Below are positions 2,153 through 63,720 of a stretch of DNA of 64,000 bases, in pieces. Position 1 is the stretch's first letter. Every line of letters begins with the position of its first letter. The notes under the pieces are model-generated. The model was not told the DNA's origin. It saw only the letters and a list, made by a program, of their open reading frames with translations, and did no database searches. Source of the DNA: an uncultured bacterium (GTDB lineage Bacteria; Patescibacteriota; Minisyncoccia; Phycocordibacterales; GWA1-40-21); contig CAIKXE010000011.1 in assembly GCA_903831305.1 (NCBI GenBank), positions 12,002 to 76,001 of the forward strand, given 5' to 3'. Made by a program: the position numbers and the translations under genes.

Positions 2153-3949
2153 ATGCAAAAATATACAGTTAATCAGTATTTTGTAAGCAATATATTAAAT
2201 TGGGTTCAAGAAAAGGAAATAGCGATCCCCGAGATTCAGCGACCATTCGTTTGGGATTCAGTGAAGGTCCGTGATTTAATGGACTCTTTATATAAAGGTT
2301 TTCCTATCGGATATATTATTGCGTGGAAGAACCCTGATGTTCGCTTGAAAGATGGAACTATATCAGGTGGTAAAAAAGTATTAATTGATGGCCAGCAACG
2401 CATTACGGCACTTAGGGCGGCGGTTCTTGGTCAAAATATAGTAAATACTGATTACAAAGAAGGACGTATTTATATTGCCTTCCACCCAATTACCGAAGAG
2501 TTCGCAACACTTACACCGGCTATCGAAAAGGACAAGGCTTGGATTCCAGATATTTCTAAGTTAATGACTAAAGATGGCGGACTCTTTCAGGATGTTACAA
2601 ATTATTGTGAAAAAAATCCTGAAGTAAGCAGAGATCTTATAGAAAGGAATATAGAAAAATTACTTCAGATTAAGAGTAAGCAAGTTGGATTTATTGAACT
2701 TGATTCAAATTTGGACATTGAGACGGTCACAGAAATATTTATTCGCATTAACTCCAAAGGGGTAGTCTTAAGTCAGGCGGATTTTGCCATGTCCAAGATT
2801 GCCTCATATGACAATGAAGATAATTTTGGAGTGAACTTAAGAAAGTGTATTGATTATTTCTGTCACCTTTCTCGTGAACCGCATTTTTATAAATACATAA
2901 GTGAGAACGACCAGGAGTTCAGTAAGACCCAGTATCTTTCCAAGATAGCCTGGCTTAAAGATGAAAATGATGATCTGTATGATCCTGATTACTCAGACGT
3001 ATTAAGAGTTAGTTTTACAAAACAGTTTGAAAGAGGAAAGATGGCTGACCTGGTAGGATTACTTTCGGGAAGGAATTTTGAAACAAGGAGTTTTGAGCAA
3101 TCAATAATGGACGAGTCGTTTCAGAAGTTAAGCATGGCTCTATTGGACTTCGTAAACGAAACATATTTTAAAGATTTTGTGATGGCTATCAAGTCCTCCG
3201 GTTTTATAAGCAAGGATTTGGTCAATTCACAAAATACCTTAAACTTTGCATATATTTTATATCTCAAGCTTAGAGAAAAAGGCGTAAACAGGGATGAGAT
3301 TAAACGATTAGTTTCAAGGTGGTTCGTGATGTCTTTATTGACCGGCAGATATTCTGGTTCACCAGAGAGTAAGTTTGATTTTGACATCAAACAGATTTCA
3401 AAGGATGGCGCTGATAAGGTGTTAAAAGCAATTGAGGATGCGGAGCTATCTGATGCTTATTGGAATTTTGGCTTGGTCCAGGCGCTCGATAAGGCTACTA
3501 TAAATAGCCCCTTTCTGAACCTGTTCTTTGCTGCTCAAATTAAGGCTAATGACAGAGGCTTCTTGTCCACGGACATAACGGTGGGAAGCATGATTGAGCA
3601 CAGAGGTGATATACATCATCTATTCCCAAGGGATTATTTGAAATCTAAAGGCTTAGAGCGCGGTGAATATAATCAAATTGCAAACTTTGTGTATGCTCAG
3701 TCGGAAATTAATATCAATATTGGAAACAAAACACCGAAGGGCTACATGCTAGATGTCATTGAGCAGACAATGGGCGGCAAATCAAAGTATGGAGGAATTG
3801 ATAATAAAGAGATTCTGATTGAAAATCTAAGACAGAACTGTATCCCTGAAGGTTTTGAGAAAATGGAAGTCGGTGATTATGAAAATTTTCTTAAAGATAG
3901 GCGTAAGTTGATGGCAAAGAAGATAGAGGGGTATTATAAGAGTTTGTAA
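2153..3949 (+). CDS. GmrSD-family DUF262/DUF1524 protein (type IV restriction-like; ParB-like NTPase/nuclease N-domain + HNH/His-Me C-domain)
   Basis: N-terminal DUF262 hallmarks IPEIQRPFVW and LIDGQQRITAL. C-terminal DUF1524-like HHLFPRDYL. Confidence 0.8.
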   Translation: MQKYTVNQYFVSNILNWVQEKEIAIPEIQRPFVWDSVKVRDLMDSLYKGFPIGYIIAWKNPDVRLKDGTISGGKKVLIDGQQRITALRAAVLGQNIVNTDYKEGRIYIAFHPITEEFATLTPAIEKDKAWIPDISKLMTKDGGLFQDVTNYCEKNPEVSRDLIERNIEKLLQIKSKQVGFIELDSNLDIETVTEIFIRINSKGVVLSQADFAMSKIASYDNEDNFGVNLRKCIDYFCHLSREPHFYKYISENDQEFSKTQYLSKIAWLKDENDDLYDPDYSDVLRVSFTKQFERGKMADLVGLLSGRNFETRSFEQSIMDESFQKLSMALLDFVNETYFKDFVMAIKSSGFISKDLVNSQNTLNFAYILYLKLREKGVNRDEIKRLVSRWFVMSLLTGRYSGSPESKFDFDIKQISKDGADKVLKAIEDAELSDAYWNFGLVQALDKATINSPFLNLFFAAQIKANDRGFLSTDITVGSMIEHRGDIHHLFPRDYLKSKGLERGEYNQIANFVYAQSEININIGNKTPKGYMLDVIEQTMGGKSKYGGIDNKEILIENLRQNCIPEGFEKMEVGDYENFLKDRRKLMAKKIEGYYKSL

Positions 3950-3957
3950 TTGTAATT

Positions 3958-6900
3958 ATGTCTAAAGAGCCTAGAAAAACAAATAAATCTAACGATATAA
4001 ATGAAACTTTTTCATACGGTGTAGTTTATGTTTATTCTATTCCGGACGAAAAACATAAGGGGCGTTTAAAAATCGGTAGTGCAACTATAACTTCAGCCAA
4101 GTCAACTCAAGATGACGTCAATTTAGCTGCTGAAGAGCGAATACAGCAACAAACAAAAACGGCTGATATTTCTTATGTACTTGAGCATGCAGAGCTCGCT
4201 ATTACAAATGACAACTGTTTTTTCCGTGATCATGATGTTCATGAAGTTCTCAAGCGATCAGGTTATGAACGTAAAACAGAGAATGTTAAAAATGCACACT
4301 CGGAGTGGTTTGAAGTTAGTTTAGACGTTGCAAAGAAAGCAATTCAAGCTGTAAAAGAAGGGCGAACAGCATTAATGACTGGAGAAAAAATTGCTCCCAA
4401 GACTTCTGAATTTTCTTTTCGTCCAAACCAGCGCGAAGCGATTGATAAAACTATCAGAGCCATTAAGAAAAATCGCAAACATTTTCTTTGGAATGCAAAG
4501 ATGCGTTTCGGTAAAACATCAGCGGCTATGCAAGTGGCTAAAGAGAATGAAATGAAAAGAGTCATTATCGTCACTCATCGCCCTAGCGTAAGTGTTGATT
4601 GGTACGATGACTTCAACAAAGTATTTATTGGCACAAACTATGAATACTCTTCAAAAACAAAAGGCTTAAATATAAGTACCCTCATGAAAGGTGACAAACC
4701 TTTTGTTTATTTTGCATCTTTACAAGATTTACGCTTATCAAAACGGGTAGTAGAGGATGGGTCCGCTGGATCTAAGGCTGCAGGATTTGATAAAAATGAT
4801 GAAGTTTTTGATACAACCTGGGACATGCTAATTATTGATGAAGCCCATGAGGGAACACAAAGTAATCTCGGGGATGCTACTTTTTTAAAGATACCAACAA
4901 ACTTTACGCTACAGCTTTCCGGCACACCTTTTAATATTCTACATAAGCACGAAGAAGAAGATATATACACCTGGGACTATGTAATGGAACAGGAAGCAAA
5001 GCTCAATTGGGACGAGCGCAATCCCGGAGTACCAAACCCTTATGCTGAACTACCAGCTCTGAGTATTTTTACTTACGACATAGATACATTTGCTAGCCAT
5101 ATTGGTAAATTAGGCGAAGGTTTTCATGATTCCTTAGACGGTGCTTTTAAATTCCATGAGTTTTTCCGTGTACAAAAAGATAATGAGGGTAATGATACTG
5201 CTGAGTTTGTCCATGAGCCGATGGTTAAGAAGTTCTTAGATTTATTGGCTGATGATAAGTTAAAGACAAAATTCCCATACGCGACAGAAGAATACCGTAA
5301 CTATAACAAGCATTCCCTCTGGTTATTACCGAATCGTGTCAAAGTTATTGAAGCAATGGAGAAATTGCTTAAGGACCACCAGATTTTTGGTTCTAATCAA
5401 TTTGGCGTTGTAAATATTTCTGGAGATAGTCGTGATGATGAAGAAGATAAAGACGCCAAGGATCGCGTTACCAAGGCAATTAAAAATTATGACTATACAA
5501 TAACACTAACAGGTCAACGTCTCACAACTGGGGCATCTGTTCCTGAATGGACAGCAATCTTTATGATGTCTGACACAAACTCTGCCACTACCTACTTACA
5601 GACAGCTTTTAGATGTCAAACTCCAGCAAGAATAGATGGTAAGCTAAAAACACAAGGATATGTATTTGATTTTGCTCCAGATCGTACTTTGAAACTGGTC
5701 GCTGAGGCGATAGAGCTTAACCACAAATCAGGAAAGACTAATTCACCAGAACAGAAAGAAGCGATGAGACAATTTCTTAACTTCTGCCCAATTTTAGCCG
5801 CGGAGGGTGGAACAATGAAGCTATATGATGTGGGGAAAATGCTCGTTCAATTGAAAAAAGCCATTATTGAAAGGGTTAGCCGTAATGGTTTTGATGATCC
5901 TAAATTATACAACGATGAGTTGTTACGACTTGATGAGCTAGATGTAGCTAAGTTTAATGCGCTCAAAGCTATTGTTGGTAAATCTACTAGTGAAAGAATA
6001 AACGAAATTGAGATTAACAGTCTTGGTATGACTGATCTCCAAGCAAAGAAAGCAGAAGAAGCTGAACGTAAGAATAAACAAAAGAAAGAGCTATCAGAAG
6101 AAGAAAAGGAAAATTTGAAAAAATTAAAGGAAGCCCGTGAGCAGAAGCAGACGGCTATTAGTATATTACGCGCTGTGAGTATACGTATGCCGATGTTGGT
6201 ATATGGAGCAAATGTATCAATCCACGATGATATAACTTTGCAAAAGTTTATTGAGCTTGTTGATGAAGAGTCTTGGCAAGAGTTTATGCCGGTGGGACTA
6301 ACAAAAGAAAAGTTTAAGGAATTTACTAAATATTATGATGAGGAAGTATTTAAGGGGGTTGCTCACAGTATTCGGGCCAAAGCTTTTGATTGTGATGACC
6401 TCTTACCGACAGATAGAATACGCACAATTTCTGAAATATTCAGCACTTTTAAGAATCCAGACAAGGAAACCGTCCTAACACCTTGGAATGTGGTGAATAT
6501 GCATCTAACCAAAGCTTTTGGTGGCCATGATTTTTGTAGTGAGGTTATAGATAAAAAAGGAAAACCAGAATGGAAGAGTTATAATGTTGATACTAGTGTA
6601 TGGTCCCAGGACGACACAAAGATCCTTGAAATAAATTCAAAGTCTGGTTTGTATCCCTTGTTAGCATGTTATAATGTATATTCGAGACAGCTTAAGAATA
6701 GTAAAGAGAGAAATAAACTAGAAGAGAAGATATTTAGACAAGTATGGAATAAGGTTTTGGCGGATAATATTTTCGTGCTTTGTAAGAGTCCAATGGCTGT
6801 GAGTATCACAAGACGAACGCTTGCCGGATATAGCGGTGCTAGGACGAATATTATTTATATTAAGGACCTGGTTAATAAACTCCAACAGAAAGGTGGTTTT

Positions 6901-7974
6901 AAGGATTATAATTTAAAGAATGAATTATTAGAAAAGTTTAATTTAAAAGATAAAGATATGAAATTCACAGCCGCCGTAGGAAATCCCCCATATCAAATAC
7001 AAACTAAAGATACGAGTGATAATCCTGTCTACCATCTTTTTATGGATGAGTCTTACAAATTAGCAGATAAGGTTGCATTGATTCATCCAGCTCGTTTTTT
7101 ATTTAATGCCGGAAAGACTCCAAAAGAATGGAATAAAAAGATATTAAATGATAAGCATACTAAAGTCATTTTTTATGAACAGCAGTCGTCCAAGGTTTTC
7201 CCGAACACAGATATTAAAGGAGGGATTGCAATAACCTACCATGATATTAGTAAGGATTTTGGTAAAATTGGTTCATTTACTAGTCATCCTGAACTTAAAA
7301 CGATACAGGAGAAAGTCGAGAACCACGACAATTTTGCACCGCTGAGCGGAATGATATACCTACAGAACAAATTTAATCTTGATGCGTTATATAAAGATAA
7401 TCCATCGTTTAAAAAAATAATTGGAAGTAGTGGCAGAGAGAAACGTTTAACTTCTCCAATATTTGAACAACTTAATGTTTTTGTGGATAATCCAAAGCAC
7501 GATACAGATGTTAGAATTTTTGGTTTGATAAAAAATAATCGAACCTATAAATGGATAGGCAAAAACTATTTAGAAAAACATCCGAACTTAGAGAAGTATA
7601 AAGTCTTAGTTGCTAAGGCTAATGGAAGCGGGGCTCTTGGTGAGGTGCTCTCATCTCCTATTATCTGTGAACCTTTTACAGGTTTTACATTTAGTTTTAT
7701 CTCATTTGGCGCCTTTAATGATGAAGATGAAGCTCAAGCGGTTCTAAAATATATCAAAACAAAGTTTGCGCGAACTATGTTGGGAGTATTAAAAATTACA
7801 CAGGATAATCTTCCTAGGACTTGGTCAAAAGTTCCTCTTCAGAATTTCACTAATAAATCTGATATTGATTGGTCGAAATCTATTCCTGAGATAGATAAAC
7901 AACTGTATGCGAAATATGGTCTTGATAAAAAAGAAATAGACTTCATCGAGACACATGTGAAGCCTATGGTTTAA
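3958..7974 (+). CDS. fused T5orf172 (GIY-YIG-superfamily) domain - SF2/SNF2-like DEAH helicase - gamma-class N6-adenine DNA methyltransferase (Type ISP/IIG-like restriction-modification enzyme) with C-terminal putative target-recognition region
   Basis: N-terminus GVVYVYSIPD...GRLKIGSAT...HEVLKRSGYERK...EWFEV (T5orf172 pattern). Helicase motif I FGKTSAA, motif II LIIDEAHEG, motif III LSGTPF and Q/R motif TGQRLTTGAS. MTase motif X-like VLTPWNVVNM, motif I-like ILEINSKSGLYPLLA and motif IV AVGNPPYQ. About 330 aa follow NPPY. Confidence 0.8.
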   Translation: MSKEPRKTNKSNDINETFSYGVVYVYSIPDEKHKGRLKIGSATITSAKSTQDDVNLAAEERIQQQTKTADISYVLEHAELAITNDNCFFRDHDVHEVLKRSGYERKTENVKNAHSEWFEVSLDVAKKAIQAVKEGRTALMTGEKIAPKTSEFSFRPNQREAIDKTIRAIKKNRKHFLWNAKMRFGKTSAAMQVAKENEMKRVIIVTHRPSVSVDWYDDFNKVFIGTNYEYSSKTKGLNISTLMKGDKPFVYFASLQDLRLSKRVVEDGSAGSKAAGFDKNDEVFDTTWDMLIIDEAHEGTQSNLGDATFLKIPTNFTLQLSGTPFNILHKHEEEDIYTWDYVMEQEAKLNWDERNPGVPNPYAELPALSIFTYDIDTFASHIGKLGEGFHDSLDGAFKFHEFFRVQKDNEGNDTAEFVHEPMVKKFLDLLADDKLKTKFPYATEEYRNYNKHSLWLLPNRVKVIEAMEKLLKDHQIFGSNQFGVVNISGDSRDDEEDKDAKDRVTKAIKNYDYTITLTGQRLTTGASVPEWTAIFMMSDTNSATTYLQTAFRCQTPARIDGKLKTQGYVFDFAPDRTLKLVAEAIELNHKSGKTNSPEQKEAMRQFLNFCPILAAEGGTMKLYDVGKMLVQLKKAIIERVSRNGFDDPKLYNDELLRLDELDVAKFNALKAIVGKSTSERINEIEINSLGMTDLQAKKAEEAERKNKQKKELSEEEKENLKKLKEAREQKQTAISILRAVSIRMPMLVYGANVSIHDDITLQKFIELVDEESWQEFMPVGLTKEKFKEFTKYYDEEVFKGVAHSIRAKAFDCDDLLPTDRIRTISEIFSTFKNPDKETVLTPWNVVNMHLTKAFGGHDFCSEVIDKKGKPEWKSYNVDTSVWSQDDTKILEINSKSGLYPLLACYNVYSRQLKNSKERNKLEEKIFRQVWNKVLADNIFVLCKSPMAVSITRRTLAGYSGARTNIIYIKDLVNKLQQKGGFKDYNLKNELLEKFNLKDKDMKFTAAVGNPPYQIQTKDTSDNPVYHLFMDESYKLADKVALIHPARFLFNAGKTPKEWNKKILNDKHTKVIFYEQQSSKVFPNTDIKGGIAITYHDISKDFGKIGSFTSHPELKTIQEKVENHDNFAPLSGMIYLQNKFNLDALYKDNPSFKKIIGSSGREKRLTSPIFEQLNVFVDNPKHDTDVRIFGLIKNNRTYKWIGKNYLEKHPNLEKYKVLVAKANGSGALGEVLSSPIICEPFTGFTFSFISFGAFNDEDEAQAVLKYIKTKFARTMLGVLKITQDNLPRTWSKVPLQNFTNKSDIDWSKSIPEIDKQLYAKYGLDKKEIDFIETHVKPMV

Positions 7975-7977
7975 ATT

Positions 7978-8910
7978 ATGAAAGTCTCGACGCGTAATAT
8001 TGATATACTCGAAAACACGCTTCGTCGTACCGGTGATTTGCTGGATATTCTTCTATTGGACCGCACCACAAAAAAGAATATCATCTGGGCAACAGATTCA
8101 TATGAAAAACATGGCAGAGATTTTTTAGCTAAAACGAGAATCATGCCAGAATTGGTAACTGGTAAGTGTGGCTTGCTCATACAACCACGCGCTGCTAAAA
8201 GTTTGGATGAACAACGTCTACGCACTAAAGACAAGGCTGAGGTTTTTACACCATTAAAGATTGTAGATCAGATGAATAAAATGATTGAGACTGCTGACCA
8301 CAGTAGTCTGCCTAGTAAAAGTAATTGGCAAGAATACGTTCGTGAATTGAAGATTGAGATTACCTGCGGTGAGGCCCCCTTTATTGTTAGTCGCTATAAT
8401 CCAATTGCAAATACTCGCAAAATTATTAAATTAGATAGTCGCGTTGGTTTTTTAGATAGAAAATTGAAAATAGTATCTAAATATTGTCCTACGAAAAAAG
8501 AGTGGTTGTTTTGGGCAAAAGAAGCTTTTAGGGCAAGTTATGGCTATGAATGGCAGGGGGATAATGTGCTGCTTGCGCGTGAGAACTTGTTGTACACGCT
8601 TATTGACTATTACAAAGCTAAATTTAAAGAGAAACCATCTCTCAAGATACAAGAAGAATTTGCGGAAATTATAAGTTGGAATATATTCCAAATGGACGGC
8701 CTGCGGTACGTTATTCCTATGAGTTGCCATCATGAGAGCAGGGTTATTCCTAGTGTAGCTACGCTTTTTGGTGAAATACCAGGTAAGGTTGAGAAGAATG
8801 AATGTGAAGGCTGTAAGTATAATCGTCCAAATAAACACAACGGAAGACATGTCCAAATTATGGATTGGAGTAAGAATAAGGTAGTAAGGTTCGTGGATTT
8901 AATTAAATAA
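7978..8910 (+). CDS. MTase-like protein carrying HsdM/Eco57I-type motif X and motif I but no NPPY catalytic motif; C-terminal Cys/His cluster (putative Zn site)
   Basis: AEVFTPLKIVDQMNKMI matches the G-E-F-F-T-P-x-x-V motif X of gamma-class N6A MTases. EITCGEAPFIV resembles motif I. No (N/D/S)PP(Y/F) anywhere. C-terminal cluster CHHESR...NECEGCKYNRPNKHNGRH. Confidence 0.45.
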   Translation: MKVSTRNIDILENTLRRTGDLLDILLLDRTTKKNIIWATDSYEKHGRDFLAKTRIMPELVTGKCGLLIQPRAAKSLDEQRLRTKDKAEVFTPLKIVDQMNKMIETADHSSLPSKSNWQEYVRELKIEITCGEAPFIVSRYNPIANTRKIIKLDSRVGFLDRKLKIVSKYCPTKKEWLFWAKEAFRASYGYEWQGDNVLLARENLLYTLIDYYKAKFKEKPSLKIQEEFAEIISWNIFQMDGLRYVIPMSCHHESRVIPSVATLFGEIPGKVEKNECEGCKYNRPNKHNGRHVQIMDWSKNKVVRFVDLIK

Positions 8911-8992
8911 GACTAAAATTAGGGGCGTAATATATAAAGTATCCAGTAGTAGGTAGTTACGGCGGTTTAATGGAAAAAATAAGGAAACAAAT

Positions 8993-11900
8993 ATGAAGAC
9001 ATTTTTTTACAAAAATATTATTTTAAAAATAAAGAGCTTTTTTCAAAAGAAAGAAAGGTCCTTATTAGACATAGCAAATAGAGAAAAAAAGAATAATAAA
9101 GAACTAAAACGTATTGTTAAAAATAAACTTCCACCGCTATGGATGCCATCCGTTTCGTCCTTTCTAAGAATATTTTTTGTAATGATGTTTTTTTGGATAA
9201 TTTCACATCCAAAATATTTAGTAGAGTTAATACTTTCACCGTTACATAGTTTGTTTTTACACACACCATTTCTTAAAACGGTAGTTCCTTACATTATAAA
9301 AATGTTTAGCTTATTACCACATTCAATACCTATTATTAGCGAAGGTGGTAATTTATTAGCAGTTCACGCGGGTGTAGGATCTGTTTTGATTGGGTTAGCC
9401 TTTTTTGTTGCACAAAGTTTAACAGACAAGAGCGATTCTGAAAAATCTAGGGTGCTATTGTATAAAAGTTATTTTTTCCCCTTACTGGTAGCTGAGGTAA
9501 TGGCTTTCTTTTTCTTTATTGGAAAGACCAACGTCTTGGTATATATACCGATTGCAGGAATTGCTTTTTGGACTTTGTATTCTTTGGGTAAGGTAATAGA
9601 TATTCTTGTTAAAGAGTATAAAATGGAAGAAGCGAAAAAGAGAGTTCTTTTAAACGTAACAAAAGAGAATTTTATTAGAATATTAGATAGAGAAACAACA
9701 TATAGAATTGGTAATAATTTTATTTATAAAAAATATGAGAGTAGCGGGATTTTAGATGTCAATCCTTTTGGATTTTCCAGAGATAAAAAGACGGTGGTCA
9801 GAATAAAATCACAAAAAAGTGGTGCAATCGTGGATATTAAAATGAACGAGCTTGAGAGATTAATACTACTATTGAGTCAGGCGGTAAAAGTAGATTTTCC
9901 TATAGGAAATGCTGAGACAACTAACGATAATGGGGTCAAAGTTAAAAGTGAATCACTATGTTGTTTATTAACATTACTAGGTCATAAAATAGAATTAGAG
10001 CAGCCATTATTCGAGATCAAAAAAGAAATCGCTGATAAGATTGGTGTGAAAAGATTAGAAAAAATAATCGAGAGAGTGTTTTTAATAAAAGATGACATCT
10101 CAGAAGTTGAGGCACGTACCGAAGTTTTAAAATTAAAGGATAGGTGTATCCTAGCAATAAACAATCAACAAACAGGAGAATTAGAGAAGATAATAAAATT
10201 GTATGTCGAACTTGTTAATGAATTTTCTAAATATTTTAATTTGTATCATGGCGGATGTTTTTCGTCAGAACAAGCAAGACAGGAAAGAAACTCATTTTTT
10301 GAAAGACTTAAGCCTCTAGACTGGATATCAAAAGATATTAGAGAAATTTTTGATAGAGGGATAAATTCTGAAGATCTAAATATTATCAGAGATGTTGCCT
10401 ACTTGCCCATAATGCTGGTGCAACAAGCTATTGAAAGTAAAGACCATCTTATTTTTCAGGAATTCATACCTTATTCTTTGGTTCTGTACGAAAAAGCCTT
10501 TGATTTCTCAAAAAAAGATAGAGAAAAGGAATCAGAGATAATGTTTGATCGGACTTGGCGATATTTGAAGGAACTATCCGCATATTATCTCGAATCAAAA
10601 TTAAAGGAAGAAGATTACCCTGAGGGTGACTTTAAAGACTATTACATCCAGATACTTAAAATTTTACAGGCACTATTAAAGTCATCATTTGATAAGAAGG
10701 ATTTGACTAATTTTAATAAGTTCTTAAAAGTTACCTCAGATTTATTTAACAGATTAGATAGACCGTACTCAAATTCTTCTTATACTAATACTGAAAAAGT
10801 CTTTAATCTTCTAGACGGTAAACGTCAGGAAATGTTCTTTGGGGTTTCTAGTTGGATTTTATTTATCTTAAAGAACAATAAAGATCTCCAGGTCAGAGAA
10901 TTTTATAATGCAGTACAAAATGAATTACCTTCAGATATCATCGAATTCACAAGGGTGTTTTTACAATCTCATAGTTTTGATACCGAAGATCATTGGGGTT
11001 GGGATTGGTGGGAATCCAGGCCGGATGAGGGCGTACATACGATAAATGTACTTGAAAAACTTGAGCAATTCTTTGTGGTTAGACTATTGATATTATTAGG
11101 ATCAAAAAGTGACCAAGAAATTGAAAAAATTAGTTTACCTCATAATAGGGATTTAGCTTTTCTTGCCGAAGGAACAAGAGACGCAATCAAGATTATAGAT
11201 GATATTGAAAAAAACCCTGGTAATTGGACTTTTATTTTAGATAGCGAATCTGTAAAAAGATGTCTAGCATTACGTAATCTACTTAAAAAAGCACATGATC
11301 AGCAGGAACAAGATGATTTAAGGTGTAAACGTGAAGCTGATATTTCAAGAGATAAAGTTGAAAAATTTAAGAAGTATTTTATTGAAAATTATAAACAGAG
11401 TCATCCAATCAAAGAGATGTTAAAAGACTTTGGTCTTCTTTCAAATAAAACCAATAAAAAAGTTGGAAAAGAGATAAAAAAACTGGGAATTAATACTTTG
11501 TTTGATAAAGGTGCTTTTTTGGGTGATGAGGTCAATTGGTACATTCATTATACGGGAATTAAAGAAGCTTTTGGTTTTGGTAGGAGTATGGTTTATGGTG
11601 AGAATGAATATGTTCTTGGAAAAATCAGAGGTAAAGCTAAAGAAATAACAGAAGATAGGTTTGAAAATACTTTGGCGGGGATCCAATTATCTAACATCGT
11701 CCTTATTGCTACAAACCATGCTGTATGGAAGTTCTTTGAGAGATCAAATAGTAATTGGATACCTAAGTGGCATAGCGAATTTCCTAAAGAGCTCTTCGGT
11801 AATCAAATAATTGAAGGTGTCTACAGATTTAAAGATAAAATCATTCCGGTCTATCAGCTATTTACTTCAGGTTCTAGTAGTTCAGATATCTTTATTTTAG

Positions 11901-12190
11901 ATAAAACTAAAATTGGGAAATTGGTACAATTTTCTCCACTTGAGGATGGTGATAGTACAGATGTATTGTTCGATGTTTTCCTTATAGATGTTCAGGAATT
12001 TATTTTAAACTCTACCTTAATTACCGAATTTATTGATAAGCCTCCACAGTGGCTGTCGGATATTGGTAATAAAGAGAAACAGATTGAACATCTGCAAGAG
12101 TGTGTTTTGATTCATGTCTTTGAAAAAATTCAATTTAAACTTCACAATGAATTTAGTGGGTATATATTACTAACAGATAAGATAAAATAA
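8993..12190 (+). CDS. large (1065 aa) hypothetical protein, N-terminal multi-pass membrane region plus ~850-aa predicted cytoplasmic alpha-rich domain; no recognisable catalytic motif
   Basis: Hydrophobic segments LRIFFVMMFFWIISHP, VLIGLAFFVAQSL, VAEVMAFFFFIG and IPIAGIAFWTLYSLG in the first ~200 aa. The remainder is K/E-rich with no Walker A, HxK or PD-(D/E)xK motif seen. Confidence 0.6.
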   Translation: MKTFFYKNIILKIKSFFQKKERSLLDIANREKKNNKELKRIVKNKLPPLWMPSVSSFLRIFFVMMFFWIISHPKYLVELILSPLHSLFLHTPFLKTVVPYIIKMFSLLPHSIPIISEGGNLLAVHAGVGSVLIGLAFFVAQSLTDKSDSEKSRVLLYKSYFFPLLVAEVMAFFFFIGKTNVLVYIPIAGIAFWTLYSLGKVIDILVKEYKMEEAKKRVLLNVTKENFIRILDRETTYRIGNNFIYKKYESSGILDVNPFGFSRDKKTVVRIKSQKSGAIVDIKMNELERLILLLSQAVKVDFPIGNAETTNDNGVKVKSESLCCLLTLLGHKIELEQPLFEIKKEIADKIGVKRLEKIIERVFLIKDDISEVEARTEVLKLKDRCILAINNQQTGELEKIIKLYVELVNEFSKYFNLYHGGCFSSEQARQERNSFFERLKPLDWISKDIREIFDRGINSEDLNIIRDVAYLPIMLVQQAIESKDHLIFQEFIPYSLVLYEKAFDFSKKDREKESEIMFDRTWRYLKELSAYYLESKLKEEDYPEGDFKDYYIQILKILQALLKSSFDKKDLTNFNKFLKVTSDLFNRLDRPYSNSSYTNTEKVFNLLDGKRQEMFFGVSSWILFILKNNKDLQVREFYNAVQNELPSDIIEFTRVFLQSHSFDTEDHWGWDWWESRPDEGVHTINVLEKLEQFFVVRLLILLGSKSDQEIEKISLPHNRDLAFLAEGTRDAIKIIDDIEKNPGNWTFILDSESVKRCLALRNLLKKAHDQQEQDDLRCKREADISRDKVEKFKKYFIENYKQSHPIKEMLKDFGLLSNKTNKKVGKEIKKLGINTLFDKGAFLGDEVNWYIHYTGIKEAFGFGRSMVYGENEYVLGKIRGKAKEITEDRFENTLAGIQLSNIVLIATNHAVWKFFERSNSNWIPKWHSEFPKELFGNQIIEGVYRFKDKIIPVYQLFTSGSSSSDIFILDKTKIGKLVQFSPLEDGDSTDVLFDVFLIDVQEFILNSTLITEFIDKPPQWLSDIGNKEKQIEHLQECVLIHVFEKIQFKLHNEFSGYILLTDKIK

Positions 12191-12193
12191 TTT

Positions 12194-13696
12194 ATGAAGC
12201 CCATATCCAAATCTCTATTCCTTCAATACTTAATCTGTCCTAAAGACGCGTGGTTTAGGCTGCACCAGCCGGACCTGGAGGAATTTAATGTCTCCTTTTC
12301 GGACCAAAATGTGATGGCCCAGGGTAATGTGGTGGAGGATTGTGCTAAGAAACTTAAGATATTCTCCGGTTTTGTGGAAGTCAAAAGCCGGGCTTTCTCG
12401 GCCAGCAAGGAGATAGACAAGCTGATTGCTGAAGAAGTACCAGCAATCTATCAGCCAACCTTCAGCGTTGATGGTTTTATAATCCGCTGTGACTTTCTGG
12501 TTTGGAATGCCAAAACCAAGAAATGGGACTTATACGAGGTTAAAGGTACAAATTCCAAGAAGGATGACGATGGACCGCGGGACCATATCTCTGATCTAGC
12601 TTTCCAAACAATTGTGCTGGAGCGATACGGTCTTAGCATCGGTAGTAAATATATTGTTCATTTGAACAAAGAATACGTTAGGGGTAAGGAGCTGGATGTT
12701 GAAGAACTCTTTGTTATTAATGATAGCACCGAGCAGGTAGAACTAAAGAAAGCTACTACCGATGCGCAGATGGAGAAAGCTAAGGCGTATTTGAATCAAG
12801 AGGATGAGCCTAAAGACGGCTGTAACTGTCATTTATTAGGTAGAAGTAATCATTGTGAGACATTTAAGAAATCACACCCCGAGATACCGGATTATTCCGT
12901 CCATGATATATCCAGGATAGGTTCAACGCCTGATAAGCTGATTCAACTGGTCAAGAACGGTATCTATCATCTCCACGAAGCGGAAGACATATCTGATTTT
13001 ACCATTCCCCAACAAAACCAGATTCAGGCCCATAAGACAAAGAAAGAGATAATTGTCAGAGAAGAAATTGCTAATATTCTGGACAATTATACCTATCCGC
13101 TGTACTTCTTTGATTATGAGACCTTTGCACCTGCCGTGCCTATCTATGAAGGATTTAGCTCATATCAGCGTATACCAATCCAATTTTCCTTGCATATTAT
13201 TGAAAAGATGGCCGGACCTGTCCGTCATCTGGACTATCTTCACCTAGAGAATACTGACCCTTCAGAAACTGTTGCTAAGATGCTAGGCGAGGTCATAGAT
13301 CCTAAAGGAACAGTCCTGGCCTGGAATGTCTCTTTTGAGAAAGGCGTTACATCGGAGATAGCGGAAAGACTGCCTAAGTATGAGCCGGTGATAACGAGGA
13401 TTTGTGGCCAGATGAGAGACCTTCGGGATATTTTTTCCCAGCAGCATTATGTCCATAAGGATTTTAAAGGGAAAACCTCAATTGAAGCTGTTATGAACGT
13501 GTTATTGCCAGATATGACTTATGATCATTTACCATATACTGGTAGTGATGTGGGTTTTGTCTGGTGGAATGATATAGTCAATCAAGGTAAGGAACCTTCT
13601 GAAAGGGAGGAGAAGATACATCTAATCCGGGAATACTGTAAACAAGATACTTTTGTAATGGTGGAGATTTTTAGAATATTGAATAGTATTATATAA
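12194..13696 (+). CDS. two-domain nuclease: Cas4/RecB-like PD-(D/E)xK domain with Fe-S Cys cluster + DnaQ-like DEDDy 3'-5' exonuclease domain (DUF2779-like architecture)
   Basis: The Cys arrangement C15...CNCHLLGRSNHC (C-x-C-x8-C) matches Cas4/AddB Fe-S clusters. PD-(D/E)xK-like ...DGFIIRCDFLVW...WDLYEVKG. Exo I YFFDYETFAP, Exo II-like AWNVSFEKG and Exo III YCKQDTF. Confidence 0.65.
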   Translation: MKPISKSLFLQYLICPKDAWFRLHQPDLEEFNVSFSDQNVMAQGNVVEDCAKKLKIFSGFVEVKSRAFSASKEIDKLIAEEVPAIYQPTFSVDGFIIRCDFLVWNAKTKKWDLYEVKGTNSKKDDDGPRDHISDLAFQTIVLERYGLSIGSKYIVHLNKEYVRGKELDVEELFVINDSTEQVELKKATTDAQMEKAKAYLNQEDEPKDGCNCHLLGRSNHCETFKKSHPEIPDYSVHDISRIGSTPDKLIQLVKNGIYHLHEAEDISDFTIPQQNQIQAHKTKKEIIVREEIANILDNYTYPLYFFDYETFAPAVPIYEGFSSYQRIPIQFSLHIIEKMAGPVRHLDYLHLENTDPSETVAKMLGEVIDPKGTVLAWNVSFEKGVTSEIAERLPKYEPVITRICGQMRDLRDIFSQQHYVHKDFKGKTSIEAVMNVLLPDMTYDHLPYTGSDVGFVWWNDIVNQGKEPSEREEKIHLIREYCKQDTFVMVEIFRILNSII

Positions 13697-13727
13697 TCAA
13701 TTTAATACAAAAATCTGTAAATAAAAT

Positions 13728-14444
13728 ATGAAAAATAAAAGATATATAATCATAGTGCTTACAGTCCTTTTGTTGCTTATTTTGGGTGCGTATCAATTAT
13801 TTATTCTTAATCAAGAAAAACAACTAGATGTAGTCAATAAAAACACTGTTCGTGTTTGGGATGCAGAAACCGCATCATTCGTAGAATACGCTTCTTATGA
13901 AGAAATGGAGCAAGAATGGGAGAATGAAAGAAAAAGAGAAGTTGAGGAATATGATAAAACCACTAGGGGGACAATTGTGGAGCAAATTCAAAATATAAAT
14001 ATCCCATCAGATGTTGATGAAAGTGAGGTAGCCCAATTACAACAAGGAGAGGTAGAGGTTCGTAGCGAAAAATCGGAGGATTTTCCAGACGGGATTTTCT
14101 CGTGGGGAGCTTACTTAGTTGAAAATATAAAATCTTTCACTATTGGTGATTTTAATAACGACGGACTAGATGATGTTGCCCATATCATTGCATACACAGG
14201 TGGCGGTAGTGGAATGTTTTACAATCTCGTTATCTTTATGAATAATCAAGGCAAATTAAAGTATTTAACTCAAGAAGGGTTGGGTGACAGAGTTATCATC
14301 CAGAGTGTAAAATATGAATCTGGAGAGTTTATTGTTGATATAATTACTCAAGGTGAAGGGGATAATTTTAAAGGGTATTGTTGTCCAAACGTACCAAAGA
14401 CTGTTAAATTTAAGCTAGAAAATAGTAAATTAGTAGAATTTTAA
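13728..14444 (+). CDS. hypothetical membrane-anchored/secreted protein
   Basis: N-terminal anchor IIIVLTVLLLLILGAY and an acidic linker. No known motif. Confidence 0.5.
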   Translation: MKNKRYIIIVLTVLLLLILGAYQLFILNQEKQLDVVNKNTVRVWDAETASFVEYASYEEMEQEWENERKREVEEYDKTTRGTIVEQIQNINIPSDVDESEVAQLQQGEVEVRSEKSEDFPDGIFSWGAYLVENIKSFTIGDFNNDGLDDVAHIIAYTGGGSGMFYNLVIFMNNQGKLKYLTQEGLGDRVIIQSVKYESGEFIVDIITQGEGDNFKGYCCPNVPKTVKFKLENSKLVEF

Positions 14445-14445
14445 A

Positions 14446-14583
14446 ATGGATATGGATGATGAAGTATTTGAAAAAGCAAAAGAGGAGGATTTGACACTAG
14501 ATGAAGCTGAACAGCTTCAGGAGCTTGTCGACGAAACAGGTCTTGATGTTGATGAAGCTGAAGAACTTCGCCAGGAATTATAA
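14446..14583 (+). CDS. small (45 aa) highly acidic peptide, hypothetical
   Basis: Manual translation gives MDMDDEVFEKAKEEDLTLDEAEQLQELVDETGLDVDEAEELRQEL, about 40% D/E. It starts 2 nt after the upstream stop and ends 7 nt before the next ATG. Absent from the ORF track only because it is <60 aa. Confidence 0.4.
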   Translation: MDMDDEVFEKAKEEDLTLDEAEQLQELVDETGLDVDEAEELRQEL

Positions 14584-14590
14584 AAAAGTC

Positions 14591-15127
14591 ATGGGAGAAG
14601 AAAATAAACAAAAGTATATCAAGATATTAAAATTGGACCCAAACCTTGCTAGGACCGGTAGGTATACCAGGTCACTTGAAAAGTATCTTGAAAAGAATAA
14701 CCGGTCATTTAACATAGTAGACGGTAATTACATTGTCTATGTGTCTGATAAAAATGAGGCTATAAGAATAGGTTTTGAATTGAGAAAATATGAAATTGAG
14801 TATTTTGATGGTGTGGAATTATTACCCTTGGAACTTGAACCAAAAAGAATAAAAGGCGAACGAGCAAAAAGAGCGGCGCCAGATTCTTCCTCCGGTAAGA
14901 CAGTGACAGTTAGTCAGTTCATGAAAAAAACCAAACAAGATATCAAGCTAGATTGTTTAGTTAAGGCTGAAATAATCAAAAGGAAATTACTAACAAGAAA
15001 AGAAATGGAGACGGCTATATCTTGGGGGAAGTTAAAGACAATAAAGTTTAGAAATAAGGAGTATTTTGATCGTCAGGAAATATTTGATTACCTGAAAAGT
15101 AATTTTCGTTATGATACTGGAAACTAA
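14591..15127 (+). CDS. hypothetical protein with C-terminal excisionase/MerR-like helix-turn-helix
   Basis: The ORF track start at 14501 overlaps the small acidic ORF. The in-frame ATG at 14591 (MGEENKQ) follows its stop. The C-terminus TVTVSQFMKKTKQDIK...GKLKTIKFRNKEYFDRQEIFDYL resembles excisionase-family HTH (…GKLPxIKIGRRWRIxxxDLDEFL). Confidence 0.45.
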   Translation: MGEENKQKYIKILKLDPNLARTGRYTRSLEKYLEKNNRSFNIVDGNYIVYVSDKNEAIRIGFELRKYEIEYFDGVELLPLELEPKRIKGERAKRAAPDSSSGKTVTVSQFMKKTKQDIKLDCLVKAEIIKRKLLTRKEMETAISWGKLKTIKFRNKEYFDRQEIFDYLKSNFRYDTGN

Positions 15128-15132
15128 TTTTA

Positions 15133-16077
15133 CTACCAGCAAATCACTGGCTCCCCATCAGTAACTTCATTTAGATAGGCTTTAGCTTCTTCAATTCCTC
15201 CTATTTTATCTATCAGGCCTAGTTCCTTAGCTTTCTCTCCTAAGACGGATGAACTATCAGCAAAGCTTTTGACCGCAGCCATGGTGAGTCCACGATTCTC
15301 AGAAACTGACTTGATAAAATTGTTATAAATAATATTTATATCTCTCATAAAAAGAGCCTTTTCACCGGCAGTTAAGGCTTTGTCAGGATTGCCAGAATCT
15401 TTAAACTCCCCAGAAGAAATTTGCTCATAGATCAACCCTTCCTTTTTATTTTTCTCTACATTGCTGACATAAGACATGGTGACGCCAATACTACCCACAT
15501 CAGAATTAGCCGAGGCAAATATTTTATCCGCACTACTTATTGCCCAATAGGCAGATGAAACGCCTAGATCTCGTATAACAGCAATGACTGGTTTTGCACT
15601 AGCTTTTACCGCCTTAGCAATTTCCTCACCGGCTACTGGAGAACCACCACCAGAATCAACTTCTATTAGAATAGCCTTAATGTCTGGATCTAAATTAGCA
15701 TCTTCAATTGACCAGGTGACTTCTTCGCTGGAGGTTTGATCATAATCAAAGAATGAATCACCTTCAGCGTGATTCGGAATATAGGTGACGACTGTGCCAT
15801 GGAGGTTAATACCTATAACAGAACAAGCTTGATCTGAACTAGTCTCTGATTCACTACTATAATCACTCGAAGATAAATCTTCTGAGTTGTAACCAGAAGA
15901 TCCACCAAAAACATAAAAAGAAATAAAGCAACCAATAAAGACACCGGCGGCAATGACAGCTATACCAATAAGCGCTGGCGAAATCTTTTTTAAAAAAGCG
16001 TAGACTTTTTTAACCTGACCTTTTTCTTTTTTTGTTACATTTATTCCTTCCATAAAGTTATAGTGATTATAGCACAA
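15133..16077 (-). CDS. sppA: signal peptide peptidase SppA (S49 family), membrane-anchored
   Basis: KPVIAVIRDLGVSSAYWAISSADKIFASANSDVGSIGV is the S49/ClpP-fold core. N-terminal TM anchor. Confidence 0.75.
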   Translation of the reverse strand: MCYNHYNFMEGINVTKKEKGQVKKVYAFLKKISPALIGIAVIAAGVFIGCFISFYVFGGSSGYNSEDLSSSDYSSESETSSDQACSVIGINLHGTVVTYIPNHAEGDSFFDYDQTSSEEVTWSIEDANLDPDIKAILIEVDSGGGSPVAGEEIAKAVKASAKPVIAVIRDLGVSSAYWAISSADKIFASANSDVGSIGVTMSYVSNVEKNKKEGLIYEQISSGEFKDSGNPDKALTAGEKALFMRDINIIYNNFIKSVSENRGLTMAAVKSFADSSSVLGEKAKELGLIDKIGGIEEAKAYLNEVTDGEPVICW

Positions 16078-16132
16078 GATTGTTTGGTAATCCTATTTTT
16101 CAGTTATTTCTATTTGTGCTATCATCGAATAT

Positions 16133-16630
16133 ATGAAAAGAGAGATTAAATCACTGATGAAAACCCGGCAAATGGGTGTCCTGCCTTATACCTACAGAGA
16201 CTTGGATAGCTTGGAGGAGATAAGAGACCGGAAGATAGATGGTGTTCACGCCTATTGTTTTTATAATGATAAATTGGTTCTGGTTTATTCTGATAAAAAA
16301 GGCTATTGGACCCCAGCCGGCGGAGGAACAGAGAAAGGAGAAAATGTTGAAGAAACAGTTATAAGAGAAGTTAAGGAGGAAACCAATATGAGAGTTTTGA
16401 AGCAGAAAATAATTGGCTATCAGGAAGTCTTTGAACCAGACAGAATCCATGTTCAAACCAGATCAGTTTGTTTGGTAGAACCTTATGGACCTTTTGTTTC
16501 TGATCCCGACGGTGATATTACGGTCATAAAATTAATTGATCCAAAAGATTACAAACAATATTTTGACTGGGGAGAGGTGGGGGATTATATTATGCAGAGA
16601 GCGTTGGAATTATTAAAAGATTTAAAGTAA
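16133..16630 (+). CDS. NUDIX hydrolase
   Basis: Nudix box GGGTEKGENVEETVIREVKEETN. Confidence 0.8.
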   Translation: MKREIKSLMKTRQMGVLPYTYRDLDSLEEIRDRKIDGVHAYCFYNDKLVLVYSDKKGYWTPAGGGTEKGENVEETVIREVKEETNMRVLKQKIIGYQEVFEPDRIHVQTRSVCLVEPYGPFVSDPDGDITVIKLIDPKDYKQYFDWGEVGDYIMQRALELLKDLK

Positions 16631-16631
16631 A

Positions 16632-17702
16632 ATGGAAAAAGGCAGTAATAAAAAAATACACGTCGCCCTCTTGTTCGGCGGAAAATCGGCGGAACATGAA
16701 GTCTCTATAAGATCGGCACAGAGTATTTATAATGTTCTAGACAAGAGTAAATATAAAATCACGCTTGTTGGCATTGATAAGAACGGTACTTGGTTGTCTT
16801 TGAATACTCAGCAATTTCTTTCAAGTAAAGAAATTCTTTTAGACAAACAAATACTACCCTATAGTATTGATAATTTATTCCAGTCAGACAAATCAAAAGT
16901 CGATGTTGTCTTTCCAGTCCTTCACGGTCCTTTTGGTGAAGACGGCACGATTCAAGGTTTGCTAAAATTAGCTAATATCTCTTTTGTCGGGGCGGGTGTC
17001 CTTGGTTCAGCGGTGGGTATGGATAAGGAAGTTGCTAAGAGACTTTTGCGAGATGCTGGATTATCGACCGCTAAGTTTAATGTCTACAGTGAATTTGAAA
17101 GAAAAACTATTTCCTTTGAAAAAGTCAGAAAAAATCTTGGTTTGCCACTCTTCGTTAAGCCAGCGAATCTGGGATCTTCTGTTGGTATTACGAAGGTTCA
17201 TAATAAAGCTGAGTTTATAAAAGCAATTAATTTTGCTTTCCAGTATGACAGCAAAATCCTCATCGAAGAATTCATAAAAGGGAAAGAGATAGAGTGTTCC
17301 GTATTGGGAAATGAAAAGCCTATCGCTTCAGTTTGTGGTGAGATTATACCTCATCACGAGTTTTATTCTTACGAAGCAAAATATTTGGATGATAATGGTG
17401 CAGCTCTTTCCATCCCCGCTAAGATTACAAAACCACTTATGAAAAAGATTCAGACACTAGCCGTAAGAGCATTTAATGTCCTCTGCTGTGAAGGAATGGC
17501 GAGAGTAGATTTTTTCTTAAAGGAAAATGGAGAAATTTATATAAACGAAATAAACACCATTCCGGGTTTTACTTCAATCAGTATGTACCCTAAACTTTGG
17601 GAGGAAAGTGGTATCCCTTATGGAAAACTTATTGATACCTTAATTAAACTAGCAATCAGCAGACACAATAAGGAACAAAAATTAAAAACATCTTTTAAAT
17701 AA
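16632..17702 (+). CDS. ddl: D-alanine--D-alanine ligase
   Basis: HGPFGEDGTIQGLL, ATP-grasp core, EINTIPGFT. Confidence 0.85.
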   Translation: MEKGSNKKIHVALLFGGKSAEHEVSIRSAQSIYNVLDKSKYKITLVGIDKNGTWLSLNTQQFLSSKEILLDKQILPYSIDNLFQSDKSKVDVVFPVLHGPFGEDGTIQGLLKLANISFVGAGVLGSAVGMDKEVAKRLLRDAGLSTAKFNVYSEFERKTISFEKVRKNLGLPLFVKPANLGSSVGITKVHNKAEFIKAINFAFQYDSKILIEEFIKGKEIECSVLGNEKPIASVCGEIIPHHEFYSYEAKYLDDNGAALSIPAKITKPLMKKIQTLAVRAFNVLCCEGMARVDFFLKENGEIYINEINTIPGFTSISMYPKLWEESGIPYGKLIDTLIKLAISRHNKEQKLKTSFK

Positions 17703-55194: not shown

Positions 55195-55279
55195 GGAGAG
55201 ATGCGAGAGTGGTTTAATCGACAGACCTGGAAAGTCTGCGTGGGGCAACCCACCAAGGGTTCGAATCCCTTTCTCTCCG
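55195..55279 (+). tRNA. tRNA-Ser (anticodon GGA)
   Basis: Acceptor ggagaga/tctctcc. 3-bp D stem. Anticodon stem cagac/gtctg with loop cuGGAaa. Long variable arm. T arm aaggg-ttcgaat-ccctt. No CCA encoded. Confidence 0.8.
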
Positions 55280-55305
55280 CAATTTTTAGTGATATTATGT
55301 AGGTT

Positions 55306-63047: not shown

Positions 63048-63121
63048 TGGTGCGGGTAGCGAGAATCGAACTCGCGTCTCAACCTTGGGAAGGTCGCATT
63101 CTGCCACTGTACCATACCCGC
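63048..63121 (-). tRNA. tRNA-Gly (anticodon CCC)
   Basis: The reverse complement gives GCGGGTA...cgacc-uuCCCaa-gguug...T-loop TTCGATT...TACCCGC-A-CCA, with CCA encoded. Confidence 0.8.
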
Positions 63122-63188
63122 GCTGGTACTTATCTTAGCAGATATGGTAGAATATTCCAGTGTTTATTAACAGTTAATAAAAAAAGAT

Positions 63189-63422
63189 ATGAAAAAAGTA
63201 GTTATATATTCCACCCCCACTTGTCATTATTGTCATTTAGCTAAGGGTTTCTTTGACGCTAAAGGTGTTAAGTATGAAGATTTTAACGTGGGTACTGACT
63301 TGGCTAAGAGGAAGGAGATGGTGGACAAGAGCGGTCAGATGGGGGTTCCGGTGATAGATATTGGCGGAGAAATCGTCGTTGGTTTTGACGAGGCTACCGT
63401 GTCACACCTGCTCGGTCTGTAG
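63189..63422 (+). CDS. glutaredoxin/NrdH-like thioredoxin-fold protein
   Basis: VVIYSTPTCHYCHLAKGFF (CxxC) and GVPVIDIGGEIV. Confidence 0.75.
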   Translation: MKKVVIYSTPTCHYCHLAKGFFDAKGVKYEDFNVGTDLAKRKEMVDKSGQMGVPVIDIGGEIVVGFDEATVSHLLGL

Positions 63423-63461
63423 TTTTAAATTTTTGGTTATTTGTGCTATATTGGGCACCAG

Positions 63462-63536
63462 GCCCTCATAGCTCAACGGATAGAGCAATCCCGTCCTAAG
63501 GGAGAGATGTAAGTTCAATTCCTACTGGGGGCACCA
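63462..63536 (+). tRNA. tRNA-Arg (anticodon CCU), tentative
   Basis: Acceptor GCCCUCA/UGGGGGC (one G-U). D arm GCUC-AACGGAUA-GAGC. Anticodon loop gUCCUaa. T loop TTCAATT. CCA encoded. Single mismatches in the anticodon and T stems. Confidence 0.6.
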
Positions 63537-63638
63537 AAAGACTGGAAATTAATTATAAAATAGTGTAATATCTTTTGTATACCAAACGCTGAGATATGCT
63601 GTTTTGGTAGATAACATCCTTTAGAAGAAAATACCAAT

Positions 63639-63711
63639 GCCGAGATAGCTCAGTTGGTAGAGCATTCCCCTGAAGAGGGAAGGGTCCCCAGTTCGAGCCT
63701 GGGTCTCGGCA
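63639..63711 (+). tRNA. tRNA-Phe (anticodon GAA)
   Basis: GCCGAGA-TA-GCTCAGTTGGTAGAGC-a-TTCCC-cuGAAga-GGGAA-ggtcc-CCAGG-TTCGAGC-CCTGG-TCTCGGC-A. Confidence 0.85.
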
Positions 63712-63720
63712 CACAAAAAT

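Follow-up and report, generated by a model that had tools for sequence, protein, structure and literature searches.

A widespread family of membrane-anchored proteins with a predicted HK97-fold domain, often encoded at the 3' end of restriction–modification operons, is a candidate for anti-phage defence

What kind of protein is encoded by a long open reading frame (ORF) lying among the genes of a restriction–modification (R-M) locus, and is it part of the restriction machinery? The question is raised by positions 8993–12190 (+ strand) of a 64,000-nucleotide stretch of DNA from an uncultured bacterium of the Patescibacteriota (GenBank contig CAIKXE010000011.1, positions 12,002 to 76,001; the whole stretch is called the window below). 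The ORF has an ATG start, encodes 1065 amino acids followed by a stop codon, and is preceded by an AAGGA ribosome-binding site 8 nt 5' of the ATG. At the GC content of the region (~33%), ~7.5% of random codons are stops, and an open frame of 1065 codons would arise by chance with p ~1e-36 (arithmetic from GC), indicating that the ORF is real. A preliminary description of this DNA had given the same position and length, which the ORF call reproduced exactly, and had correctly placed it between a DNA methyltransferase (MTase)-like gene and a nuclease gene, the latter annotated here as Cas4-like + DUF2779. It missed the main feature of the protein, a C-terminal domain with the predicted HK97 fold of phage capsids and encapsulins.

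A structural model was built with AlphaFold2 on a 29-sequence alignment (mean predicted local distance difference test score, pLDDT, 83.2). The layout predicted from it comprises a basic tail, about four transmembrane (TM) helices, a stalk helix, a variable alpha/beta insert, an alpha-solenoid and a 250-residue alpha/beta C-terminal domain, which map onto the gene as follows:

8993–9145, + strand: basic N-terminal tail (residues 1–51), probably cytoplasmic; mean K+R 13.1 versus D+E 4.5 in 29 homologues
9146–9346, + strand: TM1 (residues 52–72) and a weakly hydrophobic segment (residues 73–118)
9347–9592, + strand: TM2–TM4 bundle (residues 119–200), from hydrophobic windows and conserved columns
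9593–9742, + strand: long basic stalk helix leaving the membrane (residues 201–250; AlphaFold2 helix 208–248), probably cytoplasmic
9743–10090, + strand: variable alpha/beta insert (residues 251–366) with a disordered loop at 301–318, from AlphaFold2 secondary structure and pLDDT
10091–11422, + strand: alpha-solenoid of ARM/HEAT-like helical repeats (residues 367–810)
11423–12187, + strand: C-terminal alpha/beta domain (residues 811–1065), predicted HK97 (capsid/encapsulin) fold

The preliminary description had proposed a structure comparison, whose outcome depended on the part of the model submitted. The whole model, searched with Foldseek against the PDB, returned generic ARM/HEAT repeats only (E>=2e-3), which is uninformative for the C-terminal domain because the solenoid dominates the search, whereas with the C-terminal domain alone 60/60 among the matches listed were HK97-fold shell proteins, including lambda gpE, the capsid of a capsid-forming phage-inducible chromosomal island (cf-PICI), a gene transfer agent (GTA) capsid, the floor domains of herpesvirus major capsid proteins and dozens of phage capsids (typical match: 180–205 residues aligned, 3–5 Å, 6–14% identity). 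The order of the elements in the model agrees with the HK97 fold, with a hairpin at residues 816–838, a 26-residue spine helix at 856–881, a mixed alpha/beta A-domain and a long strand at 1037–1050; these elements would correspond to the E-loop hairpin, the P-domain spine helix and the A-domain, and the predicted fold of the domain is that of the shell proteins of phage capsids and encapsulins. Membership of a capsid or encapsulin sequence family was detected neither in Pfam (40 members searched) nor in PHROGs (scattered single-member noise) nor in a PDB profile search. A profile search of a large protein database with the C-terminal domain alone retrieved two fragments and no new architectures. 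The HK97 fold is listed only in tailed-phage capsids and encapsulins, and its origin is called unresolved (PMC8987985). Literature searches returned no membrane-anchored, non-shell or defence-linked HK97-fold protein, which is an absence within the literature covered and not proof.

At the other end of the protein, the hydrophobic N-terminus of ~200 residues that had been noticed before was borne out by Kyte–Doolittle windows (>=1.5 at residues 49–72, 119–144 and 154–199) and by the AlphaFold helices (54–71, 73–87, 92–110, 121–144, 149–174 and 181–206). The remainder had been called a K/E-rich alpha-helical body, which holds for its composition (K 10.3% and E 9.1% in the soluble part, which is also rich in L and I) but not for its structure, with beta strands in residues 251–366 and an alpha/beta domain at 811–1065. 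Charge counts across the family fit the positive-inside rule (besides the basic tail, K+R versus D+E was 2.8 vs 2.9 in the loop 145–153 and 10.9 vs 7.8 after TM4, and loops 113–118 and 178–180 are acidic or neutral), which points to an N-in/C-in topology with about four TM helices and the large domain in the cytoplasm; residues 73–118 are then probably an extracytoplasmic loop or amphipathic helices. Conservation was evaluated as the mean top-residue frequency in an alignment of close family members (A1) and one of distant members (A2). The TM2–TM4 bundle, which holds a small-residue face (G127/G129/G134) together with S159, P163, E168 and N180, showed the highest conservation of all regions (0.73 in A1, 0.54 in A2), whereas residues 52–118 were the least conserved part (0.37 in A1, 0.22 in A2) and the insert 251–366 was among the least conserved regions. 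Since a passive anchor is not expected to be the best-conserved part of a protein, the TM bundle probably acts as a working module, and the regions that evolve fast may be sensing surfaces.

A divergent branch of the family (L034, L035, L065, L066, L068 and L071–L073; loci compared here are numbered with the prefix L) has the membrane part as a separate gene. In these loci a ~185-aa multi-TM protein, with four TM helices by inspection, is encoded in front of a ~790-aa soluble protein (L034:7999–10885, L035:8110–11074 and L065:6065–8834), and its stop codon overlaps the start of the larger gene, indicating translational coupling. Similarity of the ~790-aa protein to the family profile is confined to its last 300 residues, the HK97-like part (E ~1e-96), and its middle differs from that of the fused form; neither split gene had a PADLOC or Pfam match. 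Because the membrane component is kept as a coupled gene, this arrangement supports a required membrane function.

A word-indexed search covering 5.8 billion proteins returned 33 homologous clusters (~1040–1120 aa, full-length coverage, 29–70% identity), and a HMMER profile scan over 1.84 billion representatives returned 1325 proteins at E<=1e-3 and 630 at E<=1e-30, nearly all of the same length and with collinear coverage, giving a family size of ~1,300 clusters at 50% identity. Full-length conservation reaches down to 22% identity among members. Judged by these searches, the protein is a member of a real, unnamed, conserved family of ~1050-aa proteins. A protein identical to it was found on nine metagenome contigs, always in the same context. 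Matches in genomes come mainly from metagenome-assembled genomes of Patescibacteria and are scattered over at least eight other lineages, with hosts among the Spirochaetes, Gamma- and Alphaproteobacteria, Fusobacteriales, Haloplasmataceae and Acidobacteriota as well as Clostridium oceanicum and Exiguobacterium profundum. A distant but full-length member (1021 aa, 4 TM; profile E 4e-59 across the C-terminal half) is encoded on a plasmid of Pseudanabaena galeata CCNP1313 (L083:6874–9939; NZ_CP112879.1 116719–119784), where the gene adjoins two PIN-domain genes and MobC/relaxase. The protein itself had no match in Pfam, NCBIfam, PADLOC or PDB sequences, and the same Pfam, PADLOC and NCBIfam searches annotated its neighbours well; 40 diverse members (down to 22% identity) gave no significant Pfam match apart from one chance-level hit (SPO22, E 0.0011), and PDB sequence and profile searches gave noise only (SipD, K2P channel, thymidine kinase, E>=0.007). 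In agreement with what had been reported for this ORF, a regular-expression search found neither a Walker A motif nor the phospholipase D-type motif HxK(x)4D, and loose PD-(D/E)xK and HNH patterns gave only low-specificity matches. No family member was found in IMG/VR viral contigs or INPHARED phages, and on that ground we discarded the ideas that the gene is a structural gene of a phage or an anti-defence gene carried by one.

Most of the loci compared are also alike in the position of the gene. Of ~55 non-redundant loci gathered, 36 have a family gene that is full-length (or includes the 5' end) and are known for at least 2.8 kb upstream of it. In at least 24 of them an R-M operon on the same strand lies directly upstream (directly downstream in L027), and the operons are of many types:

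Type I hsdMSR: L005, L038
Type I/IIG-like MTase-S fusions: L014, L048
AlwI-type IIS with two MTases: L009, L047
C-protein-controlled type II: L012
D12 MTases: L013
N6_N4 MTases: L050
Type III Mod/Res: L010, L023, L046
Type IIG Eco57I-like: the window, L056, L027, and also L034 (split form, outside the 36)
EcoRI-methylase + GmrSD_N-HNH: L018, L019, L028
C5 MTases: L015, L051, L053

MTase-like ORFs made up 24/93 (26%) of upstream ORFs at 0–4 kb and 7/58 (12%) at 4–7 kb, compared with 4/84 at 0–4 kb downstream and 1/66 beyond 7 kb on either side. In addition, 30/33 upstream neighbours had the same orientation as the family gene, and the gaps had a median of 33.5 nt. The association is therefore directional, the gene standing at the 3' end of R-M operons. 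About one third of the loci have no R-M nearby (L011, L017, L029, L031, L033, L037), and clustering of the ±7 neighbours across loci revealed no conserved partner gene beyond R-M components, indicating that the gene needs no specific partner. Mobility genes (serine recombinases, relaxase and type IV coupling protein (T4CP) of an integrative and conjugative element (ICE), MobC, a mobilisation plasmid) occur at many loci. From its context, this is a horizontally mobile accessory gene tied to defence loci. The earlier view that no housekeeping role explains the position agrees with these counts, and no housekeeping homologue was found.

In the window, the gene follows a pair formed by a 1338-aa enzyme and an MTase, and two close relatives of this pair (76–77% identity) lack the gene and have other defence genes in its place:

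7978–12190 of the window: after the MTase, the 1065-aa protein + DUF2779
L079:13021–14727 (L079/L080): after the MTase, DUF5677
L081:13006–17360 (L081/L082): after the MTase, full GmrSD + DUF2130

The slot behind the MTase is thus exchangeable and takes different accessory defence genes. The preliminary description had called the protein embedded in the restriction operon, and had itself counted absence from otherwise conserved operons as a refutation; that absence is what is seen here, and the protein is not an integral part of the operon; because close relatives of the R-M pair carry other defence genes there, the gene is a self-contained cassette and not an integral R-M subunit. The absence argues for an exchangeable cassette, not against a defence role. 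Moreover, no MTase, nuclease or helicase domain of an R-M subunit was found in the protein (Pfam, NCBIfam, PADLOC), nor a Walker A motif. The 1338-aa enzyme family is very large, with all of 8000 scored candidates at E<=1e-20, as against 33 clusters of the membrane protein in the same database.

Taken together, we favour, tentatively and at slightly less than an even chance, the reading that the protein is a self-contained, mobile candidate anti-phage protein that occupies an exchangeable 3' R-M slot and provides second-line defence. The earlier phrase 'abortive-infection effector or sensor' is a suggestion drawn from context. A mechanism can be sketched in which the solenoid and the HK97-like domain would face the cytoplasm, the HK97-like domain would form capsomer-like pentamers or hexamers, as the fold does elsewhere, and this platform would gather 5–6 copies of the TM2–4 bundle into a ring. 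The fast-evolving loop 73–118 and insert 251–366 would sense infection, and the TM ring, once activated, would make the membrane permeable or depolarise it, so that infections which had got past restriction would be aborted. Such phage-triggered permeabilisation or toxicity is a candidate activity, for which the top conservation of TM2–4 is indirect support. The N-terminus of HK97-fold shell proteins is located at the inner face of the shell; since the 810-aa N-terminal extension ends in a membrane anchor, an open, membrane-apposed capsomer or lattice would be expected rather than a closed shell.

Several points weigh against this reading. The HK97 assignment is a prediction, the defence role is drawn from gene neighbourhood alone, and about one third of the loci have no adjacent defence gene. 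The TM region matches no known pore or channel family. The family is absent from PADLOC (2023), and hence no earlier screen had flagged it. Finally, the domain is conserved at K839, D838, E870, N871, Q979, E1044 and W1020, with K839 invariant and E870, Q979 and E1044 near-invariant in a fold that normally shows little sequence conservation. These last four residues suggest a specific site, possibly catalytic or ligand-binding, which a purely structural role in oligomerisation does not explain. In HK97 itself, K169/N356/E363 form the Lys-Asn-Glu triad of the isopeptide crosslink, and K839/E870/Q979/E1044 loosely resemble this triad.

The alternative that fares best, though we hold it doubtful, is that the HK97-like domain is a capsid mimic that engages the major capsid protein, scaffold or protease of a phage, and either tethers procapsid assembly to the membrane and so poisons it, or triggers the membrane effector upon contact. 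It would account for a fold otherwise known only in capsid-type shells (PMC8987985), and bacterial immunity is reported to be triggered by the major capsid protein (10.1101/2022.05.30.493996). Sensing the products of late genes would also complement the early action of R-M. However, the domain has no sequence likeness to capsid families in PHROGs, Pfam or PDB, capsomer interfaces are lineage-specific, which makes broad co-assembly unlikely, and a phage-contact surface would be expected to evolve fast, whereas conservation of the domain is moderate and includes polar residues that are invariant.

It is quite unlikely, in our estimate, that the protein is an R-M accessory tethering or regulating the adjacent restriction enzyme at the membrane, for example where foreign DNA enters. 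The tight same-strand 3'-terminal placement (median gap 33.5 nt) would fit such a role, the neighbours are often nucleases (HsdR, Res, AlwI, GmrSD-HNH, SNase, Cas4-like/DUF2779, RNase_T-like), and membrane-localised nuclease defence exists in the form of SNIPE (10.1101/2025.11.03.685801). Yet the partner R-M systems are of unrelated types with no common subunit, about one third of the loci have no R-M at all, and close relatives of the R-M pair in the window lack the gene. We give a small chance to a mobile-element function other than phage defence, for example entry exclusion, action against conjugation or stabilisation of the element. An ICE-like region with relaxase + T4CP, the serine recombinases and the plasmid with MobC + relaxase would suit this explanation, as would the response of Kiwa, a membrane defence complex, to conjugation too (PMC11785009), but most loci hold R-M operons and not transfer genes, and there is no similarity to known exclusion proteins. 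An ordinary membrane protein with a housekeeping role, a prophage capsid gene in decay or the shell protein of an encapsulin, to which only the membrane anchor and the HK97 fold would point, can hardly be the answer for a family with a patchy cross-phylum distribution and varying flanking genes, no portal, protease, terminase or cargo genes nearby at the loci examined, no match in IMG/VR or INPHARED, full-length conservation to 22% identity and an 810-aa N-terminal extension that would be incompatible with a closed shell.

Returning to the self-contained anti-phage protein, a further and unlikely step is that it represents the first non-shell HK97-fold protein, in which bacteria use a capsid-fold domain together with a membrane effector against phages. 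Its role would then be either that of an assembly switch resembling a capsomer or that of a capsid mimic sensing or poisoning head assembly. Fv1 is a capsid-derived restriction factor, and the family, if this is true, would be a prokaryotic counterpart of such factors and a cellular non-capsid HK97 lineage, bearing on where the fold came from. A large cellular family having the fold behind a membrane anchor and outside any shell context would widen the known uses of HK97. It is also a clean candidate for a new single-gene defence system, one that prefers the tail of R-M operons whatever the R-M type and that is frequent in Patescibacteria, a group in which immunity has received little study. 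Homologues in cultured organisms (Clostridium oceanicum JCM 1407, Exiguobacterium profundum and the Pseudanabaena galeata plasmid) make it directly testable.

The surroundings of the gene in the window consist of the following features:

292–1188, − strand: NERD-domain gene, flanking the island and divergent from it
1190–2032, − strand: SNase/thermonuclease gene with a C-terminal 'sunset' domain, flanking the island and divergent from it
2153–3949, + strand: DUF262/GmrSD_N protein, 598 aa, which opens the same-strand block (Pfam GmrSD_N 7.5e-32; PADLOC HEC-05 1.4e-26)
3958–7974, + strand: T5orf172 + superfamily 2 (SF2) helicase (ResIII) + Eco57I-type MTase, 1338 aa (Pfam; PADLOC REase_MTase_IIG 5e-50)
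7978–8910, + strand: type II DNA methyltransferase, 310 aa, 82 nt 5' of the family gene (PADLOC MTase_II 7.1e-92)
12194–13696, + strand: Cas4-like + DUF2779 nuclease-type protein, 500 aa (Pfam DUF2779 1.4e-35; PADLOC Cas4 1.7e-6)
15133–16077: S49 peptidase gene, ~1.4 kb downstream of the island
55195–55280: tRNA-Ser(gga)
63048–63712: cluster of tRNA-Gly(ccc), tRNA-Arg(cct) and tRNA-Phe(gaa)

Since the genes from ~16.1 kb on are housekeeping (NUDIX, Ddl, ProRS and others), the genes on one strand between 2153 and ~13.7 kb form a defence island; the remainder of the window resembles ordinary chromosome (Ddl, ProRS, NUDIX, AMP-binding enzyme). The product of 3958–7974 is a single-chain type IIG/ISP-like R-M enzyme. 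Its N-terminal domain is T5orf172 (GIY-YIG-related), at the place where type ISP enzymes have an Mrr/PD-(D/E)xK nuclease, and the same enzyme parts occur in L027 as separate genes, an MTase (13643–15151) and a T5orf172 protein (15164–17644). The gene at 12194–13696, which begins 3 nt past the stop of the family gene, also has a weak NCBIfam UU173-family match. A Cas4-like/DUF2779 gene was not found beside homologues elsewhere, and no +1 gene cluster was common to the loci; the same 3' slot in L038 holds an RNase_T/ExoX-like gene, and L055 has an SNase gene just upstream. Promoter and terminator scans gave background-level results only. In the longer contig L076 (1–8075), a gene for a large serine recombinase is found ~5.5 kb past the NERD gene, ~7 kb upstream of window position 2153, and the island may accordingly be part of an integrated element. 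An S49 peptidase gene, downstream of the island in the window, lies directly upstream of the R-M core in L081, and its recurrence hints at a shared integration hotspot.

Three further observations concern other loci. A small downstream gene (165–169 aa) in L005 and L009 is not general. At L013:4643–6431, 1.8 kb without an ATG-started ORF separates two D12 MTases from the family gene and could represent either a pseudogene or a restriction gene that uses an alternative start. At L049:4114–7977, a 1287-aa protein with no Pfam or PADLOC match is encoded directly upstream, its stop ending, by the ORF call, on the first base of the family start codon; it is a further unannotated large gene in a defence-like position.

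Compared with known systems, the family appears new in kind. The structurally closest proteins are HK97-fold shells, for example family 1 encapsulins (Brevibacterium linocin M18, 7bcv; T. maritima, 7k5w), HK97 gp5 (3qpr/1ohg) and T4 gp24 (1yue). Unlike these, the domain sits behind 810 residues that include a membrane anchor, has no sequence similarity to them, and belongs to a family for which a closed icosahedral shell would be sterically and topologically implausible; the neighbours at the family loci are R-M/defence or unrelated genes, and no portal, protease, terminase, scaffold or encapsulin cargo genes were found near them. Kiwa (KwaA/KwaB; PMC11785009) offers a functional analogy only, with a small multi-TM membrane component and a cytoplasmic soluble component, a two-gene layout echoed by the split variant (~185-aa 4-TM + ~790-aa soluble protein). 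However, the soluble part is far larger here and consists of a solenoid and an HK97-like domain, and neither the fused protein nor the two split genes matched KwaA/KwaB (DUF4868) in PADLOC or had a Pfam match. SNIPE is a constitutively membrane-localised single-protein nuclease defence (10.1101/2025.11.03.685801). The protein described here differs in having no nuclease domain of its own, and the nuclease-type gene 3 nt downstream in the window, which recalls SNIPE, is not conserved at other loci; the concept of a membrane-resident single protein is shared.

The genomic setting resembles that of abortive-infection genes of the PrrC/RloC type, which are embedded in R-M loci and serve as a back-up when restriction fails. 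In contrast to these, the present family has neither an ABC-type ATPase (no Walker A) nor an anticodon-nuclease domain (Pfam, PADLOC, NCBIfam), is membrane-anchored, and is linked to all R-M types, not type I alone. Like PrrC and RloC, its members are carried in or next to R-M operons, plausibly as a back-up.

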